Origin: Syntrophales bacterium
Lineage (GTDB): Bacteria > Desulfobacterota > Syntrophia > Syntrophales > UBA2210
Length of the DNA stretch: 64,000 bases
Direction: 5' to 3'
Assembly (NCBI GenBank): GCA_963666365.2
Contig: CAXXNF010000002.1
Location: forward strand, 1,952,001-2,016,000
The notes under the pieces were generated by a model, which saw only the letters and a program-made list of their open reading frames with translations, searched no databases and was not told the origin of the DNA. The translations under genes and the position numbers were made by a program. This document shows, piece after piece, positions 34,506 through 63,868 of this stretch; within the stretch, counting starts at the first letter, position 1; the number at the start of each line of letters is the position of its first letter.

Positions 34506-37500
34506 TTAGACCCCCTTCCTTTCAACATTGACCATGAATGATTTGCTCTCCGGAATCATGGTGTTGGGATCACCGATGAAGGGTGTTAGCAGGTTCGCCG
34601 AGTCACCGGTAGTGAACACCTCGGGCACCTTGTCTCCGTGGACAAACTTTCTCATGGCCGTGGTCACCCAGCCGAAATGCCAGGGGATACCGACCTGGTG
34701 CACTGTCTGCCCTGCAATGTCGAAGGGTTTGAAGCGTTCCGTCACAATGGCGACACAGTCCACTTCTCCACGGGCCGATTTGACCATCACATGCTCGCCG
34801 TTCCTAATGCCCCTGAGCTTTGCCAGCTCGACGCTCATTTCCACAAACATCTCGGGCTGCATTTCTGCAAGCCAGGGAGTCCACCGTGTCATAACGCCGG
34901 TCTGCCAATGCTCGCTCACGCGATAGGTGGAACAGACAAAGGGGTACCGCGGGTCGCAGGTCGCTCTCTTGTCGAGTTCGGTTCCCTCAACATCAAATCG
35001 GAACGATGTGGGATTGATGTACTGCGGCGACATCAGATTTTTTTCGATGGGACACTCAAGGGGCTCGTAATGCTCCGGGAAGGGCCCGTCTTTGAGGCCG
35101 GGGCCGAAGATGCTCCCCACCCCGTGAGGTTTCATTATGAAGGGCGGTCTGCCGGAACCGGGCGCCGCAACGCCGTCGGGCACATCGCCGACCCATTTGC
35201 TCCCGTTCCATAGGATAACGGGATGCTTTTTGTCCCAGGGTTCTCCCGTTTCGGGATCGACCGAGGCGCCGTTGTAAATGATCCGACGATTGACGGGCCA
35301 GCACCAGGCCCACTCGGGGTAGAGGCCGATTCCCGATTCGTCCTTTTTCCCTCTTCGGGCCGCCATATTGCCCTTCTCAGTATAGGAATTGCAATAAAGC
35401 CAGTTGCCCGACGAAGTGGAGCCATCGTCCTGCAGGAAGGCAAAGCTGGGAACCAGTGTACCCTTCTTGTAGAGCTTACCCTTGATCTCCTTGTCTTCCA
35501 GAAAGTATCCGTTGATCTCCCTGGCGATATAGTGCACGTCAAGGTGGCGCACCTTGCCATCGGCGCCCTTGGGACCATAGTCCCAGGTCATACTGGTGAT
35601 GGCCTCTGCGAGGGGACCACCCTCTTTTTCATAAAGTTCCCTCACTTTGTAATAAAGCTCGGAGATAATCTCCCCGTCAGGCAGGGCATCTCCAGGCGGC
35701 TCTACCGCCTTGTAGCGCCACTGCATCCAACGGCCGCTATTGGTGATGCTTCCCTCTTTTTCAATCGATGCGGCGCAGGGAAGACTGAAAACCTCTGTCT
35801 TGATCTTTGTCGGATCCATCCCGGGGCCTCTCCAGAAATTCCCCGTTTCCGTATCGAAGATATTGACGTTCACCATCCAGTCGAGCTTCGTCAGCGCCTG
35901 GCGGGTCTTGTTCGAGCTTGCGCCGCTGCAGGCGGGGTTCTGGCCCCAGGAAAAGAAGCCCGTAAACTTTTCCTTGTACATCTCGTCAAAGATGTTGAGC
36001 CATGAATAGGTCTTGCCGTCGTCAAGCTTCGGCAAATATTCATAAGCCTCTTCCAAAGAAACATTCATGCCGTAATGAGCCCTCAGGAGACTTGCCACAT
36101 ATTTCGGCTTGTTGCTCCACCAGTTAAGGCTCTTGGGCTCCTTCGTTTTTGGCGTATTCTTTTCGTTGTAGGCTGCAAGGGTCGGAAGCGACGCGGTCGG
36201 CGTCTGCAAGTATCCCGGCAGGATATGAAACAGCAGACACTGGTCCGTCGATCCCTGCACGTTCGACTCGCCCCGAAGCGCGTTGACGCCGCCGCCCGCA
36301 ACCCCCATGTTTCCAAGGAGAAGCTGAATGATGGACATGGTGCGGATGTTCTGCACACCCACCGTATGCTGGGTCCATCCCATGGCGTACATGATGGTCC
36401 CCGCCTTGCCGACTTCGCCCGTCTTTGTATAGGCCTTGTACACTGCGAGAAGCTTGTCTTTGGGGGTGCCCGTAATCTTCGAAACCAGGTCGATTTCATA
36501 TCTCGAATAGTGCTTTTTCAAAAGCTGAAACACGCAATTGGGATCCGAAAGCGTCATGTCTTTTTTGACGACGCCGTCGGCATCCGTCTGGAATGACCAG
36601 GTCGATTTGTCGTACTTGCTGTCCACAAGCCCGGAGAACACTCCCTCATTCTCACCGGGCATTTTGAACTCCGGGTTTACCAGGAAGGACGCATTGGTGT
36701 AATACTTCACATACTTTTCCTGAATCAGTTTATTATCCAGGATGTACTTAATCATGCCGCCGAGAAAGGCAATATCACTGCCCGATCTCAACGGGGCGTA
36801 AATATGCGCCTTCGAAGAGGTCTGCGTAAATCTTGGATCGACGTTGATCAGGGTTGCGCCTTTTTCTATTGCTTTGGTTACGTACTTAAATGAAATGGGA
36901 TGATTGGCCGCTGCATTACTTCCCATAATTAATATACAGTCACTGTGTTGGATATCGATCCAGTGATTGGTCATCGCACCGCGTCCGAACGACTCTGCCA
37001 GAGCCGCAACAGTAGCGGAGTGTCAGATACGGGCCTGGTGTTCAATATAGACCAGACCCAACCCCCTCAAGAATTTTTGATAGATGAAACACTCTTCGTT
37101 ATCCATGGCAGCGCTTCCGACGGATGCGATCCCGTTGGTCCTGTTCACCACCTGGCCTTTTTTATTTGTGATGGTAAAACTTTCGTCCCTGCTCTTTTTA
37201 ATGTTCTTTGCAATCTTATCAAGAGCCCACTCCCAGGAAACTGCCTTCCATTCGGATGCATAAGGCGCTCGATAAAGCACTTTATCCATTCTGTTTTCGT
37301 TTACCGAAAGCTGATAAATCGAACCTCCCTTACTGCACAGCGATCCTCTGTTTACGGGGTGATCAGGATCCCCTTCCGTATTGATCACCTTCCCATTACG
37401 GGCGGACACGATAATACTGCATCCCACGGCACAGTATGGACAGATCGTTGTGGTCTCTTTAGCATACTTGATCTTCAAGGGCTCCGCATAGGCGGACACC

Positions 37501-56456: not shown

Positions 56457-58007
56457 TTACAGGGCAGCCGCATTCTTGCCCGCAATACGTCCGAAGACCA
56501 GACAATCCACCACGGCACAACTGCCGAGGCGCACCGCTCCGTGAACGCCGCCGGCCACTTCGCCGGCCGCATAAAGCCCCTTGATCGGAGCACCGTCCAC
56601 ATCGATCACCTCTGCCTTGTCATTGATCTGCACACCGCCCATGGTATGGTGCACCTTCGGCCAGAGTCTGACGGCATAAAAGGGAGAAGTCGCAATCGGT
56701 TTGGCGTCGGGCTGGAGGAATCGTCCGAATTCCTTGTCCATTCCCGTCTTCAGATATGAGTTGTAGTCGTCGACGGTCTTTTTGACAGCCGCAAAGGGTA
56801 TTTCATAGGCCGCGGCCAGTGCCTCGAGGGTATCAAATTTTTTGACGACGCCACGCTCCAGGAGTTTTTTCACTGCACCGGGAGGACCTCCGCACTTTTT
56901 CGATCCCTCTTCGTCGGAGATACCGATCGCCGCATGACCGGTTCTGATGATGGCGTCGGCCCGAATTTTGCGATTTGCAAGCTCACTGATGAAGCGCTTT
57001 CCCGTTGCGGGATCCACCATGACACCGTAGCTGAAAACCGGACCCGTTGCGAAATGGGGCGCCAGCCCGAAGCCCTTTTCGTCAGGACTTGCCCAGGGAC
57101 CGAGCTGAATCCAGGAGGGCTGCACGGGATTCGCGCCAAGCCTGAAAAGCTCCTTGAGCCCTTCGGCGGTGGCGCCCGGCTGATTCGTGGAATTGACCTT
57201 GGCTATGAGCTTTGGATCCTGCGTCATTCTGTAGTGCACGTCCTGAGAAAATCCGCCCGTTGCCATCACAAGACCCTTCTTTGTGCGGATCGTCTTGACA
57301 GCGCCGCTCTTTTCATCGGGAAAGCGATACCCTTCCCGTATCTGGATACCGGCAATACGCCCATCCTTGTCTCTGAATATTCTTTCCAGATAGGCCTGCG
57401 TAACGATGGGCACACCCAGCTCCTTTAGTTTGGCCGCTTCCTTCATGACAATGCCCGAACCGCTGTAGTTCGAAGTGGGGCAGCTTCTAGCCACGGCATG
57501 ACCCCCCATATGGAGAAGCTGCGCCGCTTTTCCGAATTTGACGTCAAGATGCTCCTTGCACCAATTGTATGCGTCCCTGGATTGATAGGCCACCATTTTT
57601 GCCAGCTCGGGGTAGTTCAAGTACAGTCCGGCCTTCATCATGTCTTCCAGCATCAGCTCCGGAGAATCCTTAATCCCTCTCTCATCCTGCATATCGGATC
57701 CGGCCACGGCCATGACGCCACCGTTAATAATTGAATTGCCTCCATTCACGCGCATTTTCTCATAGACCGCAACCGACGCGCCCGCCTCCTTGGCCTCGAT
57801 TGCCGCGGCAAGCCCTGCAAAACCGCTGCCGATGACGGCCACATCGATTTCCTCGTCCCATTTCTGGGGCATCTCGGCGCTGAACGCCTTTGACGGACCG
57901 GCCAGCAATCCACCGGCGGCAACGCCGCCAAGGGCGACAGTGCCCGTTGTTTTGAGGAACCCTCTACGGGTCAAACCCTCATTTTTTGGTAATGTATCTT
58001 TCGCCAT
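56457..58007 (-). CDS. Tat-exported flavocytochrome c flavoprotein subunit 2 (no heme domain)
   Basis: TRRGFLK and the same FAD and active-site motifs as its paralog at 54627-56159. Confidence 0.92.
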   Translation of the reverse strand: MAKDTLPKNEGLTRRGFLKTTGTVALGGVAAGGLLAGPSKAFSAEMPQKWDEEIDVAVIGSGFAGLAAAIEAKEAGASVAVYEKMRVNGGNSIINGGVMAVAGSDMQDERGIKDSPELMLEDMMKAGLYLNYPELAKMVAYQSRDAYNWCKEHLDVKFGKAAQLLHMGGHAVARSCPTSNYSGSGIVMKEAAKLKELGVPIVTQAYLERIFRDKDGRIAGIQIREGYRFPDEKSGAVKTIRTKKGLVMATGGFSQDVHYRMTQDPKLIAKVNSTNQPGATAEGLKELFRLGANPVQPSWIQLGPWASPDEKGFGLAPHFATGPVFSYGVMVDPATGKRFISELANRKIRADAIIRTGHAAIGISDEEGSKKCGGPPGAVKKLLERGVVKKFDTLEALAAAYEIPFAAVKKTVDDYNSYLKTGMDKEFGRFLQPDAKPIATSPFYAVRLWPKVHHTMGGVQINDKAEVIDVDGAPIKGLYAAGEVAGGVHGAVRLGSCAVVDCLVFGRIAGKNAAAL

Positions 58008-58520: not shown

Positions 58521-59144
58521 TTAATGCCCTTCCTTATTGTCGTACCCAGTAATCATGGCGCTGAAATTTGCAACAACTGTGTGGCCGGTGGTGGCAAGGT
58601 AGATGTGCGCTATAAAAAACAAGCAGAAAATAGCTGCCATAATATAGTGGAACACCGCCACGGTCGCTAATCCACCGACAGACGCCACCAGGGGCTCGAA
58701 AAAGGAGGGATAGAGGTATATGATACCGCTGATCAACAGGAGCGGCATCATGATGAACATAAACATAAAATACGTTGCTTTCTGCAACGGATTAAACTTG
58801 TTGTCTTCCGACGGATTATAGGGATGGGGCCTGTTTTTGAAAATATCATACAGATAAAATCGCGCCTGCACGATCATGCCCGGATGAATATCTTCTTTTC
58901 TCATCACATAATGCGAAATCCTCTTTGAAATCAAATTATAAGCCAACCAGAAAACAAAATCGGCAACGAGCACCCATCCCAACCAGTTATGCAGTGAAAG
59001 CGCATTTGAAAAGCTTCCAAAAATATTAACGCTGTCCGGCCAGTGCATCTGGATACCTGTTAAAATAAGCAATAATATTAAAAGTGCATGAATCCAATGC
59101 CATATGCGCTCGGCGATCGGATGCAGATATATTTTCTCTGACAT
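58521..59144 (-). CDS. Di-heme cytochrome b (hydrogenase/thiosulfate reductase cytochrome b type)
   Basis: ERIWHW, LHNW, KFNPLQK, VFHY and AHIYLATTG. Confidence 0.9.
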   Translation of the reverse strand: MSEKIYLHPIAERIWHWIHALLILLLILTGIQMHWPDSVNIFGSFSNALSLHNWLGWVLVADFVFWLAYNLISKRISHYVMRKEDIHPGMIVQARFYLYDIFKNRPHPYNPSEDNKFNPLQKATYFMFMFIMMPLLLISGIIYLYPSFFEPLVASVGGLATVAVFHYIMAAIFCLFFIAHIYLATTGHTVVANFSAMITGYDNKEGH

Positions 59145-59148
59145 GTTC

Positions 59149-60912
59149 TTATTTTCTCCTCTTGCCGGTAAATCTCAATGCTCCGTGCACTGCACATCCC
59201 ACAAGCGTAAGAAGCGCCAGCAAAATTACAACGACGTCGAGAGCCGGAATTCTATTGCTGCCCACCACATAATTCCCTTTTTCAATAAGCCCGGCGTTGG
59301 TAAATTTCCAATTGGCCAGCGAATAATCCGGTTTTCCTTCAGCCTCTTTCAAGAGAATCGTGTTGTATGTATGACAAAGCTGACAATCGTCAACGGGAGC
59401 TGCCATTGAAGGATCGTGACATACGAGACAATCGGTTTTTTTCAGGTGAAGCTTCGGCTGTTCCAGCCAGTTATGCCGCACGGATGGAGCGGGCTTTAAC
59501 GTAACGAACACATCTTTGTTTGCATCGATTTCCCACGATTCGGCAGCATCCTTTTCCGTCAGAAACAGTTCATCCTTTCCGTGACAGGAAAGGCACGTTT
59601 CGTTTTGTGGGGTCTTCAGTTGAATGCTATGCGGCGTTGCATATTTCCATGTTTGCACTTTGCCCACTTCAGTCAGGGCGTCCTTCACGTAAAAATCAAA
59701 GAGATCCGGACTTACGGGAATATGTCGAACCGTCACATATTGCTCAGGCCGGTCTTCGCTCATTTTCGGATTCATTCCGATTTTGAAGCCCACCTTTGAC
59801 GGCTTTGTTTTAAAATAGGGAGCACCTGATGCGTCTTTACCCACATGACAACTATAACAGTGTTTATAAGGCATCGCGTGACATACTTGACAACTCACCT
59901 TGTCTTTGTGAATCATATGGCTCGGATGTACACGCTCTTTCGCTTCACTTTCGTCTTGCGCCGCTTCATCTTCAGAACCTGCCAATTTATGACACTTTTC
60001 GCACCTTGACCCGTCTGCAACGTCATATCTGTCAAAGGTCTCATGGCTCATGCCGTTTCCGTGCATTTCATCACCGGAATGGCAATCCATACATGACATA
60101 CATTTATCAATACGGTGCACATCACCCTGCACACCCTTATTCTGGCCGTAGAATTCCTTGCCTACCCTGCTTCCGTGACAGGAGGTGCAATTTGTTTCAA
60201 CAGGAGGAGTTTTCTGAAAAATGTGGCCTTCTACGAATCCGCCTTCGACGGAATTGGGACGGCTTACGTGACATTGACCGCAACTGCTGTGACACTTCAT
60301 ACAGTGCGTTTCCATGGCGCAGTCTATTTTTTCACGTACCGATGGATCCGCATTTGCCCTTAGATAAATTTTGTTTTTAAACGGGGCAAGCGTTACATGC
60401 AGATTTGTTTTGTTTTTTTCTGCAATTTCCGGATGTCCCTCTTCATCGTCTACGAAGTGGCACTCGCCGCACTTCTGCACAGGATCGGGATAGGAAGGAT
60501 CTCTCATCAGACCTTCATGTGCCGTCTCATAATCATCGCTTTCAGGATCGCCACCATGGCACTGTTCACAGGATATCTGCCCATGGACATCATCGTCGAT
60601 GAAATCAGAGTCAACCAGCACTTTTTCGTATGGCTCCAACTGAGCCACAGCTCCGCCTCACCCTTCGCCTTCCGATTCAGCGGACTTTTTCTGCTGAGGA
60701 TTTTTCGCTGCAATCTCTTTTGTAATTCTTACCAGCTCTTTCACACTTGTATGGCATGAGACGCAGCCGCTTTCCTCGGCACTAACCATCTGCCCCGCAC
60801 CAAGAAAAACAACAACAAAGATGGCAGCAACAATAACAAAAAGTTCTGACGTGTACCGCGCACACATTATTTTGTGTGCAGAAACCCCTCTGTAAACAAT
60901 GCGTTCTTTCAT
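59149..60912 (-). CDS. 13-heme c-type cytochrome with an in-frame UGA (60658-60660); probable selenoprotein
   Basis: The 84-aa ORF (signal peptide, 1 CxxCH) and the 499-aa ORF (12 CxxCH, C-terminal TM, no signal peptide) are in-frame through SEGEG-U-GGAVAQLEPYEK. Confidence 0.82.
60629..60649 (-). promoter_or_regulatory. SECIS-like hairpin after the cytochrome UGA
   Basis: mRNA UGUGGCUC-AGUUG-GAGCCAUA; the loop starts 16 nt 3' of the UGA and has G-U at loop positions 2-3. Confidence 0.72.
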
Positions 60913-61167
60913 AACGCCCTAACACATATCAAAAACCGCTGTACGGGTAAAGGTTTTTTTACTCACAGTTACTTGAAAAAGACAGACCTCCCAAATTTCG
61001 GCTTCCAATCCTGGAATCTAGTGCCTGCCCATCGAAGGTTCCTGCATGAAAGCAAGGCCTATGCATAACTCCTGTATTTTGTACCCGCTGTGATTTTACT
61101 TTTTTTAAAAAACATGTTATGGATTGCAGGTAGTGAAAGAAATCTTATTTTTGGAGGTAAAGCTATT

Positions 61168-61614
61168 ATGCGTAATCAGATGGTTTTTAGGAAAGGTCTT
61201 ATCATTTCCATTGCCGTGATTTTAGTGCTCTCATTGTCCGGATATTGTCTGGCGGACAAGACCAGCAAGGATTTTGTAAATGAAGCGAAAAAAACGGTGA
61301 AAGAAATCTCCGTCGCCGATGCAAAGGCAGAAATAGATTCGGGAAAAGTGGCAATAATTCTCGACTGCAGAACGGAGAAGGAGTTTAAAAAAGGACATAT
61401 TCCTAAAGCAATGAATATTCCTCGCGGTCTTCTGGAATTCAAAATTGAAAAGAAAATACCGAAGAAAGACGCCTACATAATTTGTTACTGCGTATCAGGC
61501 GGCCGTTCCTGTCTTGCCTGCAGCACCATGAAAGAGATGGGATATTCAAACTTGAAAAGCATGGCGGGCGGATGGAAGGCATGGGTCAAAGCCGGTTATC
61601 CGATAGAGGAATAA
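61168..61614 (+). CDS. Exported single-domain rhodanese (sulfurtransferase)
   Basis: GGAGG RBS, signal peptide ending GYCLA, LDCRT..EF..GHIP and active-site loop YCVSGGRS. Confidence 0.9.
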   Translation: MRNQMVFRKGLIISIAVILVLSLSGYCLADKTSKDFVNEAKKTVKEISVADAKAEIDSGKVAIILDCRTEKEFKKGHIPKAMNIPRGLLEFKIEKKIPKKDAYIICYCVSGGRSCLACSTMKEMGYSNLKSMAGGWKAWVKAGYPIEE

Positions 61615-61703: not shown

Positions 61704-62546
61704 TTACATGTAACTGTGCAAACCCGAAAGTATGTAATTTACCCCGAGATAAGTAAAAATCACGGCAAAAAAACCGAGAATGGCAATACAGGCCATGATG
61801 GTTCCCTTCCATCCCTTTACCAGGCGGGCGTGGAGATAGGCGCCGTAAATCATCCAGGTGATGAGCGACCAGGTCTCTTTCGGATCCCACCCCCAATACC
61901 TTCCCCAGGCAGTATCGGCCCAGGCTGCACCAGTAATTATTCCCAGACTCAGTAAAACAAAACCGATTGAGGTTATTCGATAGGCCAGATCGTCCCACAT
62001 CGCGGCATCCGCGAGAAGTGCCGTAATTCTCGGTCCTCCCTTCACTCTGATCAAATAGAGTATGCTGGTGATGAACGAAAGAGCAAAACAGGCATAGGCA
62101 AGAAAGGAACTCACCACGTGACTGATGAGCCAATTACTTCTTAATGCGGGTATAAGAGGCTGAATTTCCGTGCTCACACTGCCGGAAAGCGACGCATAGG
62201 CCGGCAGCAAAAAGGCCAGGAAGGATGCCAGTATTCCGATACTTTCATTACCGTAACGTCTCCACATTATCAGCAATACGAGCATTACTGACCAGGAAAA
62301 AAAGACGAGCGATTCGTAGAGATTGGAAAGAGGTGCATGCCCGATTTCCAGTTGATACGAAATTGCCCAGCGCAGAATAATCGCAAACGTTTCTATGGAA
62401 AATCCGCTTGCCACCAGGATCAGTGCCAATACACGGATGACCTTTTTTTTAAAAACAAAGGCAGTAAAGAAGAAAAGAGTTCCAAAAAAATAAAGAAATG
62501 TTGCAATACTTACAAAAAATGTATCGTTCATACCAGTATCAATCAT
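61704..62546 (-). CDS. resC: System II cytochrome c biogenesis protein (ResC/CcsA type, WWD domain)
   Basis: HAPLSNLYES, WADTAWGRYWGWDPKETW and SGLHSY. Confidence 0.93.
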   Translation of the reverse strand: MIDTGMNDTFFVSIATFLYFFGTLFFFTAFVFKKKVIRVLALILVASGFSIETFAIILRWAISYQLEIGHAPLSNLYESLVFFSWSVMLVLLIMWRRYGNESIGILASFLAFLLPAYASLSGSVSTEIQPLIPALRSNWLISHVVSSFLAYACFALSFITSILYLIRVKGGPRITALLADAAMWDDLAYRITSIGFVLLSLGIITGAAWADTAWGRYWGWDPKETWSLITWMIYGAYLHARLVKGWKGTIMACIAILGFFAVIFTYLGVNYILSGLHSYM

Positions 62547-63868
62547 TGTTGTAGTTTATTAAGATGCTTTGCAAGAATTTTCTCGAAGTTGCCGTCGCGT
62601 TTTCTGTCTGTTTTCGCTGCAACTTCAACATATGATCCTTCGCCGGACGGCGTAATCCGTATCGACAGACACCGGTGCGACCCAAAGAGCACAATTACAA
62701 AACCGATGAGAATCAGGGCAAACCCACTCCATACCACGGGCATTCCCGGATTTTTGCTTATCTGTATGCCCGTGTAGTAGCGAGCGGTAAAATCTTCCAG
62801 TGCAAAGATATACTCTCCCCGTTCTACTTCCTGAGACCGGTGCCTCTGAAATGGTATCCAGAAAATATCGTGACTCATCCCCGGCACAAGCATCACACCC
62901 AATACTGCCGCCCCCTGTCCTTGAAAATCCGGCACAAACCGTGCAACGGCAAAGGAAGAGTCGCTTCCCGGCAATGGCACTTTTCGCATCCGATGGAGTG
63001 TAAGCACCGATCTGGTGCCGCTTTTCTTTTCCGTAACGGCGACTTTGAAATCGGAAGCATCGGCCATTCCATATGAAGCCTGACATAGTTTGTATCCCCG
63101 AAAGACAATGGGATGATTTACTCGTATCGATTCCTCCGCCACAGACGCACCCTCATCAATGATCGTTACATCGGATCGGTATTCTTTCGGCATACCACTG
63201 TCGTAAAATTCAACGGAAAAACGATTGCATCGTACCGAAAAGGGCAGCGTCATTTCTTTGGTTCCCGGAGAAACAAGAACCTTGCTCGAGGTTTCTCCCT
63301 CGACAATCGTCATTTGGCCTTCAAAACCGCCGACTGCACCTATGAGACCGCCGGCCAGAATTATCAGAATGCTCACATGAACGAACAGGATACCAAGCCG
63401 CGCATAGGCACCTTTTTCCGCATAAAGGTATCGCACGTCACGCTCACCTTTCACATTCGGCTTCCCGACAAGCGCTTTTACCAACATTCGCAGATTGCCT
63501 TCTATGCGTTCCCCTCTATCGTGCATTTCGAACTTATGTTGTATCGGCCACCCGCAAAAGGCCGCATCGCTCTTATCACCCCGCTTCCGAAACAGCGGGG
63601 CGCAAATTCCCGGAAGCGTTTTCGCCGTACAGGCAATGAGGTTAACTGCCAAAAGCGCCAGGAGAACGGTGAACCACCAGGAATGGTACATGTCTGAAAT
63701 ATCGAAAAACTCAATAAGAGAAACCGTACCCGGTCCATAGACATTCTCATAGTGGTCCTTTGGGAGCCCCTGTGCTACCAAAGTGCCGAACACGGAGGTT
63801 GCGGCCAGCGCAAAAAAAAGGAATATGGTAAGTTTTGCCGAAGCAAGTCCCTTGATAACTTTTTTCAT
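62543..63868 (-). CDS. resB: System II cytochrome c biogenesis protein (ResB type)
   Basis: SVFGTLVAQ, MYHSWWF, VHVSIL, IRVNHP and YTGIQISKNPG. Confidence 0.92.
   Translation of the reverse strand: MKKVIKGLASAKLTIFLFFALAATSVFGTLVAQGLPKDHYENVYGPGTVSLIEFFDISDMYHSWWFTVLLALLAVNLIACTAKTLPGICAPLFRKRGDKSDAAFCGWPIQHKFEMHDRGERIEGNLRMLVKALVGKPNVKGERDVRYLYAEKGAYARLGILFVHVSILIILAGGLIGAVGGFEGQMTIVEGETSSKVLVSPGTKEMTLPFSVRCNRFSVEFYDSGMPKEYRSDVTIIDEGASVAEESIRVNHPIVFRGYKLCQASYGMADASDFKVAVTEKKSGTRSVLTLHRMRKVPLPGSDSSFAVARFVPDFQGQGAAVLGVMLVPGMSHDIFWIPFQRHRSQEVERGEYIFALEDFTARYYTGIQISKNPGMPVVWSGFALILIGFVIVLFGSHRCLSIRITPSGEGSYVEVAAKTDRKRDGNFEKILAKHLNKLQQ

Follow-up and report, generated by a model that had tools for sequence, protein, structure and literature searches.

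Three cytochrome-type families, ExtKL (NF040886), GSU2204 (NF041027), and TIGR04315, are named in a 2026 review of prokaryotic selenoproteins, whose catalogue enters TIGR04315, the Otr family, as a GenBank-annotated selenoprotein family (PMC13188914). Of the ExtKL family, MccSep (GSU2937-2936 of Geobacter sulfurreducens, PDB 9WT8) was characterized in 2026 as a five-heme polysulfide reductase that is essential for sulfur respiration; its selenocysteine (Sec), Sec325, lies in a D-G-U-P loop of the C-terminal immunoglobulin-like domain beside a His/Cys-ligated heme, and the U325C and U325A variants lose activity (PMC13510729). In this study, a gene for a 13-heme cytochrome c interrupted by an in-frame TGA codon was analyzed, which is located at 59149-60912 on the minus strand of a 64,000-nucleotide stretch of a Syntrophales bacterium genome (assembly GCA_963666365.2, contig CAXXNF010000002.1, positions 1,952,001 to 2,016,000; hereafter the window, whose numbering is used unless a contig is given). 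The comparison of homologous sequences indicates, with very high confidence, that it is a selenoprotein gene.

The predicted product resembles MccSep/ExtKL in that it is a periplasmic multiheme cytochrome c with one UGA-encoded Sec that splits the annotated gene, in that Sec forms outnumber Cys forms, and in that both are found in Desulfobacterota. The MccSep gene cluster presumably also holds a rhodanese-like gene, ExtH. However, MccSep has five hemes and a C-terminal Sec325, whereas the present protein has 13 hemes, and its predicted Sec is residue 85 of 587, in an N-terminal GEG-U-GG loop. Its identity with MccSep/ExtKL was rejected, as the NF040886 model gave no row at E up to 0.1 and both the heme number and the Sec position differ. 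The original prediction, which was made from the sequence of the window, had cautioned that membership in the ExtKL family was not evident, and this caution was right.

Conservation of the In-Frame TGA Codon

As shown in Table 1, the TGA codon divides the gene into two open reading frames (ORFs) that share one frame, which agrees with the split described in the original prediction. The 587-residue read-through product contains 13 CxxCH motifs, one before and 12 after the TGA codon. The upstream part starts with a signal-peptide-like N-terminus, read by eye as a hydrophobic stretch, ELFVIVAAIFVVVFLGAG, followed by VSA/EE, while the part after the TGA codon opens with MAQLEPYEKVLVDSDFIDDD, which is acidic and has no hydrophobic N-terminus. 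The division of features that had been claimed earlier, with the signal peptide and one motif upstream, and 12 motifs and a C-terminal transmembrane helix but no export signal downstream, was thus confirmed. The start at ATG 60912 is provisional, with ATG 60867 (Met16) as the alternative. The residues around the predicted Sec are ...SEGEG-U-GGAVAQLEPYEK, and the Gly residues flanking this position are conserved in the homolog alignments.

When 41 related genomes were searched in six frames, the gene was detected in 16 of them, and nearly every match holds one TGA codon. As had been suggested as a check, tblastn was run across the UGA codon; it placed the TGA at one column, in the context EGEG-stop-GGAVA in close relatives and GEG-stop-AGAPPPV in relatives of about 35% identity, and the hairpin described below is conserved with it. 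The homologs align straight across the TGA in both the tblastn matches and the family alignments, and the conservation of the peptide is uninterrupted. In a scan of one genome per species, which yielded at least 586 confirmed stretches encoding a relative, the 80 best loci were examined at this column. A stop, identified as TGA, was found in 78 of them, and the column was unreadable in the other two owing to a run of N (L031) or the end of a contig (L059). When all distinct homologous segments were considered (91, from 94 loci), the codon was TGA in every one; TAA, TAG, or a frame shift, any of which would have spoken against Sec, did not occur among them. In an even sample of the class (301 genomes, 142 match rows, with the column verified for the fetched loci only), a family match was present in 135 genomes and a TGA codon lay inside 138 of the match rows. 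In the two public relatives that are closest (L004, 1404-1503; L031, 4901-5000), a 100-base run of N lies precisely over the Sec column, and these loci are unusable for the count.

Forms without the TGA codon are few. One locus (L108, G176:C234, identical to P0021) has TGG, encoding Trp, at the Sec column with the hairpin intact, and another (L109, G057:C139) has CGA, encoding Arg, with one mismatch in the hairpin; both look like recent single-base changes. P0063 has Trp at this column as well, and a single Cys form, P0098 with GEWCGG, occurs among the 120 database matches listed. P0021, P0063, and P0098 are full-length forms without a stop.

These data also bear on a two-gene arrangement, in which an 84-residue signal-anchored monoheme protein would be followed by a separate 499-residue protein starting at GTG 60648. 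A GGAG sequence does lie upstream of this GTG codon, and public gene callers nearly always call the downstream part alone: the entries in the public protein databases consist almost exclusively of the part that follows the TGA, with a query cover of about 85% in most top matches among the 120 listed. However, such a downstream protein would have 12 heme motifs without an export signal, the stop is always TGA in the 91 segments, the conservation of the peptide crosses it, and full-length forms without a stop exist. The GTG codon itself is present in only 51 of the 91 segments, so that its use as a separate start was not borne out. The two-gene arrangement is already contradicted by these observations and is scarcely credible.

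Hairpin Downstream of the TGA Codon

The 8-bp hairpin noted in the original prediction was found as described, with its AGUUG loop beginning 16 nt past the UGA codon. A hairpin with GU in its loop at this position is what is expected of a bacterial SECIS (Sec insertion sequence) element, and GU in the loop is the feature that SelB recognizes in the Escherichia coli fdhF element. In the homologous segments, GU is nearly always inside the hairpin loop. In 67 of the 91 segments, a stem of 7 bp or more without any mismatch was present, starting 5 to 13 nt past the UGA codon, compared with 166 of 1820 shuffles.

The covariation was analyzed in an alignment of 81 sequences. In total, 86.3% of the cells are paired, and in six of the nine pairs both positions vary. 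A score of 0.338 was obtained for the covariation, compared with 0.166 for shuffled alignments, none of 500 of which reached it, while partners slid out of register gave at most 0.143. The pair 21-29 is UA in 42 sequences, GC in 39, and unpaired in none. Along with this switch, the peptide changes between VAPLEP and VEPLAP, which mirrors the exchange of GGCUCC/GGAGCC for GGAGCC/GGCUCC; therefore, the protein sequence follows the base pairing of the RNA at this Ala/Glu swap. The subfamily of about 35% identity with the GEG-stop-AGAPPPV context has a different stem, CCUCCGCC / GGCGGAG, and a GGUCAA or AGUUAA loop at the same distance from the UGA codon. The hairpin is maintained by selection as RNA. 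It is this covariation, and not the fold of the single sequence, that backs the SECIS role assigned to it in the original prediction, and it makes a clear case of a SECIS element that constrains a protein sequence.

The source genome carries tRNA-Sec together with selB (361 bits), selA (608 bits), and selD (383 bits), the three proteins scoring over the curated cut-offs. The presence of selB does not separate carriers of the cytochrome from non-carriers, since it was found in 39 of the 41 relatives; the two relatives without selB also lack the cytochrome, which is consistent with a requirement but has no statistical power. With the invariant TGA codon, the covariation, and the Sec machinery taken together, the earlier proposal of a single exported, membrane-anchored 13-heme cytochrome with Sec in a GEG-U-GG motif is strongly supported.

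The UGA codon could also be read by other means, for instance as Trp by a near-cognate tRNA, or it could act as a regulated stop that yields mostly the short product. The Trp codon in L108, where the hairpin is intact, and the Trp in P0063 are in line with such readings. On the other hand, the covariation is specific to the hairpin structure with GU in its loop, the genome has the complete Sec machinery, and TGG would dominate if Trp were wanted, yet it occurs in one of the 142 rows of the class sample. Non-Sec reading of the codon is thus very improbable.

Two other apparent Sec codons were observed in the genome apart from that in the Otr-family gene described below. The selD gene (contig C1:483557-484486, plus strand) has an in-frame TGA codon of its own and is thus of the Sec type. 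In the window, a second in-frame TGA codon is located at 37023-37025 on the minus strand, in the context HQARI-U-HSAT, with 192 residues before it, 838 residues after it, and a hairpin downstream. We take this context to be the Sec motif of the formate dehydrogenase alpha subunit, so that the recoding of fdnG in the window, which the original prediction had mentioned, fits.

Relationship to the Otr Family

The read-through protein was assigned to no family in a scan against NCBIfam, in which weak rows only were obtained (ExtM, 23.1 bits with a cut-off of 800; ExtS, 13.4 bits), and Pfam gave generic cytochrome c3/c7 domains only. In a profile search of the PDB sequences, the best matches were OmhA (6qvm, E 4.2e-7) and UndA (1.3e-6); MccSep (9wt8_A) matched only at E 0.016, over the heme-motif regions, and Otr (1sp3) was not among the matches at E up to 1. 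The AlphaFold2 model of the protein has a predicted local distance difference test (pLDDT) score of 77.5. When the model was compared with representative structures using VIA-align, Shewanella Otr (1sp3_A) was the one match to stand out, with a Z score of 7.5 and a root-mean-square deviation of 4.7 over 258 residues (within residues 107-476 of the model), and the next row was at 3.8. According to the warning given by the tool, Z scores of 7 to 8 are common for models without a clear match, which tells against relying on this value alone, and a profile comparison was therefore carried out.

Genes of the Otr family (TIGR04315) were collected from the phylum, where they occur in 43 of 201 genomes, and ten of them were aligned. 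The comparison of the two family alignments using hhalign gave a probability of 99.2% and an E-value of 2.4e-19 over 380 columns. In this alignment, heme motifs 3-9 and 13 of the present family correspond to hemes 1-8 of Otr, and heme 4 corresponds to heme 2 of Otr. The C-terminal anchor of the Otr family also aligns with that of the present protein (...Y-x-x-G-x-x-R-x-x-x-x-D...H-G-x-x-R...), and in 9 of 12 loci that contain an anchored Otr gene, a cytochrome b homolog lies downstream, as one does 4 nt downstream of the present gene. These results indicate with high confidence that the body of the protein (residues 142-587) is a distant, enlarged homolog of Otr; as far as we have seen, this homology is new.

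The two families differ in the number of hemes, which is 11 to 13 in the present family and eight in Otr, and in the position of Sec. The catalytic heme of Otr is presumably heme 2, with a Lys residue as its ligand; Mowat is said to have described the Lys ligand in 2004. The Otr-family genes of the phylum have Sec and Cys forms at NNF[C/U]I, just before heme 2 and nine residues past an invariant Lys. This K-x8-[C/U] segment (LGK..V.NNF[C/U]I; K127, C136) aligns with RANADPSVREKIDCAMETH in the present family, where neither Lys nor Cys is conserved. The predicted Sec lies about 60 residues further toward the N-terminus, in an added two-heme extension that is absent from Otr. A preprint places the catalytic heme of Otr in its N-terminal module (10.1101/2022.02.24.481543). 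Because the aligned segment lacks both the Lys and the Cys (Sec), and the predicted Sec lies in an extension that Otr does not have, the protein is, as judged from these alignments, a relative and not a member of the Otr family, and its predicted Sec is not homologous to that of Otr.

The genome has its own Otr-family gene outside the window (contig C1:117305-118655, minus strand), with a Sec codon at YLNNL-U-VTP. This gene is interrupted by a TAA codon and a change of frame, so that either the gene itself is damaged or its assembly is faulty. It is followed by a cytochrome b homolog, which is 36.6% identical to the cytochrome b in the window.

Neighboring Genes

The features of the locus are summarized in Table 1. 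The counts of neighbors below refer to 96 homologous loci, and the counts of clusters refer to 47 loci of at least 9 kb.

Table 1. Positions of the cytochrome gene, its elements, and the neighboring genes in the window.
Feature	Position	Strand	Basis and remarks
Whole gene, 13-heme cytochrome c, 587 codons read through	59149-60912	-	Stop TAA at 59149-59151; sequence, ORFs, translation
Upstream ORF, 84 residues, ending in TGA 60658-60660	60658-60912	-	ORF track
Downstream ORF, 499 residues, same frame as upstream ORF	59149-60648	-	ORF track
In-frame UGA, predicted Sec codon, residue 85, motif GEG-U-GG	60658-60660	-	Column conservation, hairpin, Sec machinery
SECIS-like hairpin, 8-bp stem (60649-60642 / 60636-60629), loop AGUUG (60641-60637)	60629-60649	-	8-nt spacer after UGA; covariation
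Predicted N-terminal export signal, residues 1-45, cleavage after VSA	60778-60912	-	Read from sequence; hydrophobic N-terminus conserved in read-through homologs
Heme 1 motif CVSCH, residues 50-54, sole CxxCH upstream of UGA	60751-60765	-	C50, C53, and H54 invariant in family alignment
Otr-homologous body (very likely), residues 142-587: hemes 3-13, beta-rich domain, C-terminal anchor	59152-60489	-	hhalign and structure alignment
C-terminal transmembrane helix, residues ~557-579, conserved His, then KRRK	59176-59244	-	Sequence; model helix 556-586; aligns with Otr-family anchor
Cytochrome b	58521-59144	-	4 nt downstream of cytochrome c gene; PF01292, 97.2 bits
Rhodanese, hydrophobic N-terminus, loop CVSGGRS	61090-61614	+	PF00581, 80 bits; likely true start at internal Met27 (MRNQMVF...)
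System II cytochrome c biogenesis, CcsB-type	61704-62546	-	TIGR03144, 249.5 bits; upstream of cytochrome gene, same strand
System II cytochrome c biogenesis, ResB-like by authors' reading	62543-63868	-	No NCBIfam match
Flavocytochrome-c-type flavoprotein with twin-arginine translocation (Tat) signal, no heme domain	56457-58007	-	TIGR01813, 450.8 bits; 513-nt gap after cytochrome b

The best NCBIfam match of the cytochrome b is the thiosulfate reductase cytochrome b subunit (PhsC), with 162.5 bits, below the cut-off of 204. By sequence, the gene belongs with the PF01292 cytochromes b that oxidize quinol (PhsC, HydC, and FdnI), of which PhsC comes nearest, but its partner here is a multiheme cytochrome c and not a molybdoenzyme. 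One homolog (P0032) carries a PF01292 cytochrome b domain in fusion with its cytochrome c; another of similar length (P0030) is without the PF01292 label. The cytochrome b is a probable quinol-oxidizing membrane partner, and the two proteins likely form a quinol-linked complex.

In 64 of the 96 loci, the cytochrome gene has a rhodanese homolog as its neighbor, which in most cases follows it immediately and on the same strand. Neither this conserved partner nor the kinship with Otr was part of the original prediction. Two rhodanese clusters, which may overlap, were found in 36 and 9 of the 47 long loci. The NCBIfam rows of the rhodanese in the window were all below the cut-offs, so that no assignment at the family level was obtained. 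Sud of Wolinella succinogenes and ExtH of Geobacter are periplasmic sulfur-carrier rhodaneses; the gene in the window shares with them, as judged from its sequence, a single domain, a hydrophobic N-terminal signal, a Cys loop, and a place beside a candidate sulfur reductase.

Homologs of the CcsB-type gene adjoin the cytochrome gene in 8 of the 96 loci, and those of the ResB-like gene do so in 7. The flavoprotein was set aside as a partner, as it is present in none of the 96 loci; it is thus a lineage-specific neighbor and possibly a client of the heme chain. In the 47 long loci, a PAS-domain sigma-54 activator (e.g., L074:2937-4292, minus strand) lies beside the cytochrome-rhodanese pair in 18, while about 10 encode a molybdopterin oxidoreductase and about 7 encode 4Fe-4S subunits. 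In one relative, a paralog (L003, 4249-4632, minus strand; G002:C37) is found immediately upstream of the Sec gene, with 35% identity over residues 22-152; at the Sec column, it has no Sec, Cys, or stop (ETEGKESDKERGELAPYEK).

Proposed Function

On balance, we favor the reading that the locus holds one gene for a Sec-containing 13-heme cytochrome with an Otr-like body, which acts as a reductase that receives its electrons from quinol and reduces S-S or Se bonds. The last part, that is, the reduction of a sulfur or selenium bond, is a tentative assignment that falls somewhat short of an even chance. In the proposed mechanism, SelB and tRNA-Sec would decode UGA codon 85 as Sec, with the hairpin that begins 8 nt after it as their guide. 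The product would be exported via its N-terminal signal, loaded with 13 c-type hemes, and held on the periplasmic face of the membrane by the C-terminal helix, where the downstream cytochrome b would oxidize menaquinol and feed electrons into the heme chain. The Sec residue, in its flexible Gly-rich N-terminal loop, would be the nucleophile in the attack on a substrate with an S-S bond or with Se, for which polysulfide, tetrathionate, thiosulfate, and selenite are candidates. The attack may take place near heme 4, the equivalent of the catalytic heme of Otr, so that Sec would fill the role of the Lys/Cys(Sec) segment of Otr and of Sec325 of MccSep, and the periplasmic rhodanese would deliver or remove sulfur. 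This mechanism was proposed because the Sec325 variants of MccSep, which serves as the model for the cleavage of S-S bonds by Sec and heme, are inactive and the nearest families are linked to sulfur by name.

Several observations weigh against this reading. With respect to Sec, its incorporation at residue 85 is a prediction from comparative evidence. The fold of the single sequence is not significant (z = -1.55, with 16 of 200 shuffles folding at least as well), and the case for Sec therefore rests on the comparison of homologs and not on the single sequence; no SECIS family came up in a search against Rfam, which yielded only two chance rows at a threshold of E 10. In the class sample, there are two genomes whose sequence crosses the column but has no TGA there; instead of Cys, they have the Trp (TGG) and Arg (CGA) codons described above. 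These forms, like P0063 and P0098, are one base or nearly so from TGA, and they may be dead alleles, errors, or signs of a residue whose loss is tolerated or that is dispensable; although they speak to a slight extent against a Sec that is indispensable, such forms are very rare. With respect to Otr, HMMER gave no row for TIGR04315 (cut-off 375 bits) at E up to 0.1, and Foldseek gave no match of the model in the PDB at E up to 0.001. The physiological role of Otr is itself unsettled; the titles of cited papers give the reduction of nitrite and hydroxylamine too.

With respect to the mechanism, the placement of Sec near heme 4 is a guess, because the pLDDT score of the Sec loop (residues 87-90) is below 50. 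No Cys outside the CxxCH motifs is conserved in the family alignments, whereas MccSep needs a heme-ligating Cys, and its mechanism is therefore not simply transferable. The cytochrome b was found in 11 of the 96 loci, all of which belong to the 13-heme subfamily, and the rhodanese in the window is divergent from the cytochrome gene instead of lying downstream of it.

The count of His residues suggests another role for Sec. Nine His residues outside the motifs are invariant for the 11 core hemes, and two more are nearly invariant but missing in the distant subfamily. Because these are too few, at least some of the hemes need a ligand other than His. Thus, Sec could be the distal axial ligand (His/Sec) of one heme and tune its potential or gate the electrons, and the protein would then be a conduit or quinol dehydrogenase for other periplasmic reductases rather than a catalyst. 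The original prediction had put forward both roles, Sec as an axial heme ligand and Sec as the residue that attacks sulfur or selenium, and both remain hypotheses. The Gly-rich flanks would permit close packing on the face of the heme, the protein has about 5 kDa per heme, which is near the range quoted for electron transfer (PMC7096707), and the heme-less Tat-exported flavoprotein downstream in the window would need such a donor. However, the conserved partner is a sulfur-handling rhodanese and not a reductase, the flavoprotein does not recur in the homologous loci, and both Otr, a homolog, and MccSep, an analog, are enzymes; moreover, the near-exclusive use of Sec over Cys is typical of catalytic Sec. 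A ligand or conduit role is accordingly unlikely.

A Sec enzyme with another substrate or direction was also considered, such as one that oxidizes thiosulfate or sulfide (TsdA/Sox-like) or, as has been reported for Shewanella Otr, reduces nitrite or hydroxylamine. The homology to Otr is in its favor, as is the fact that the carriers include, according to their record titles, sulfate reducers and syntrophs in which sulfur respiration may be absent. Against it, both the partner rhodanese and the similarity of the cytochrome b to PhsC suggest a link to sulfur chemistry, and the Lys ligand segment of Otr is not conserved in the present family, which makes such a function quite unlikely.

A more specific version of the favored quinol-fed reductase can be put forward as speculation, and we regard it as doubtful. 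The protein may be a third, independently built selenium-heme site, in which the added N-terminal loop brings Sec into the distal pocket of heme 4 in an Otr scaffold that has lost the Lys/Cys(Sec) segment, with Sec perhaps bonded to Fe. Such an enzyme would be widespread among sulfate reducers and syntrophs, fed by quinol or by a cytochrome and served by a rhodanese, and would act on polysulfide or other chalcogens. If this were the case, the family would be missing from all current inventories of sulfur-cycle genes, and, if Sec bonds the iron, it would be the first natural His/Sec-ligated heme c.

Occurrence and Annotation of the Family

The protein matches none of the ExtKL, GSU2204, and TIGR04315 models, and the family was found neither in an NCBIfam model nor in the 2026 catalogue. 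Literature searches, which brought up MccSep, this catalogue, and papers on Otr, gave no description of the family, although the 31 selenoproteins named in the genome paper of Desulfobacterium autotrophicum could include a member. The family is large and mis-annotated, and it probably works on sulfur compounds. Because nearly every public record cuts the gene at the UGA codon, an abundant periplasmic redox protein is invisible to annotation. MccSep was the first enzyme with this kind of chemistry to be characterized. If the favored reductase function is right, selenium-heme-rhodanese chemistry of the MccSep type would extend to sulfate reducers and syntrophs as well as to the Otr superfamily, which is poorly understood.

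Among the truncated family members, seven (P0015, P0070, P0071, P0079, P0081, P0096, and P0099) are named "thiosulfate/3-mercaptopyruvate sulfurtransferase" by one source, a name that was probably carried over from the neighboring rhodanese. The carriers include the cultured Desulfosarcina widdelii PP31 and Dethiosulfatarculus sandiegensis SPR, and the family is therefore directly testable.

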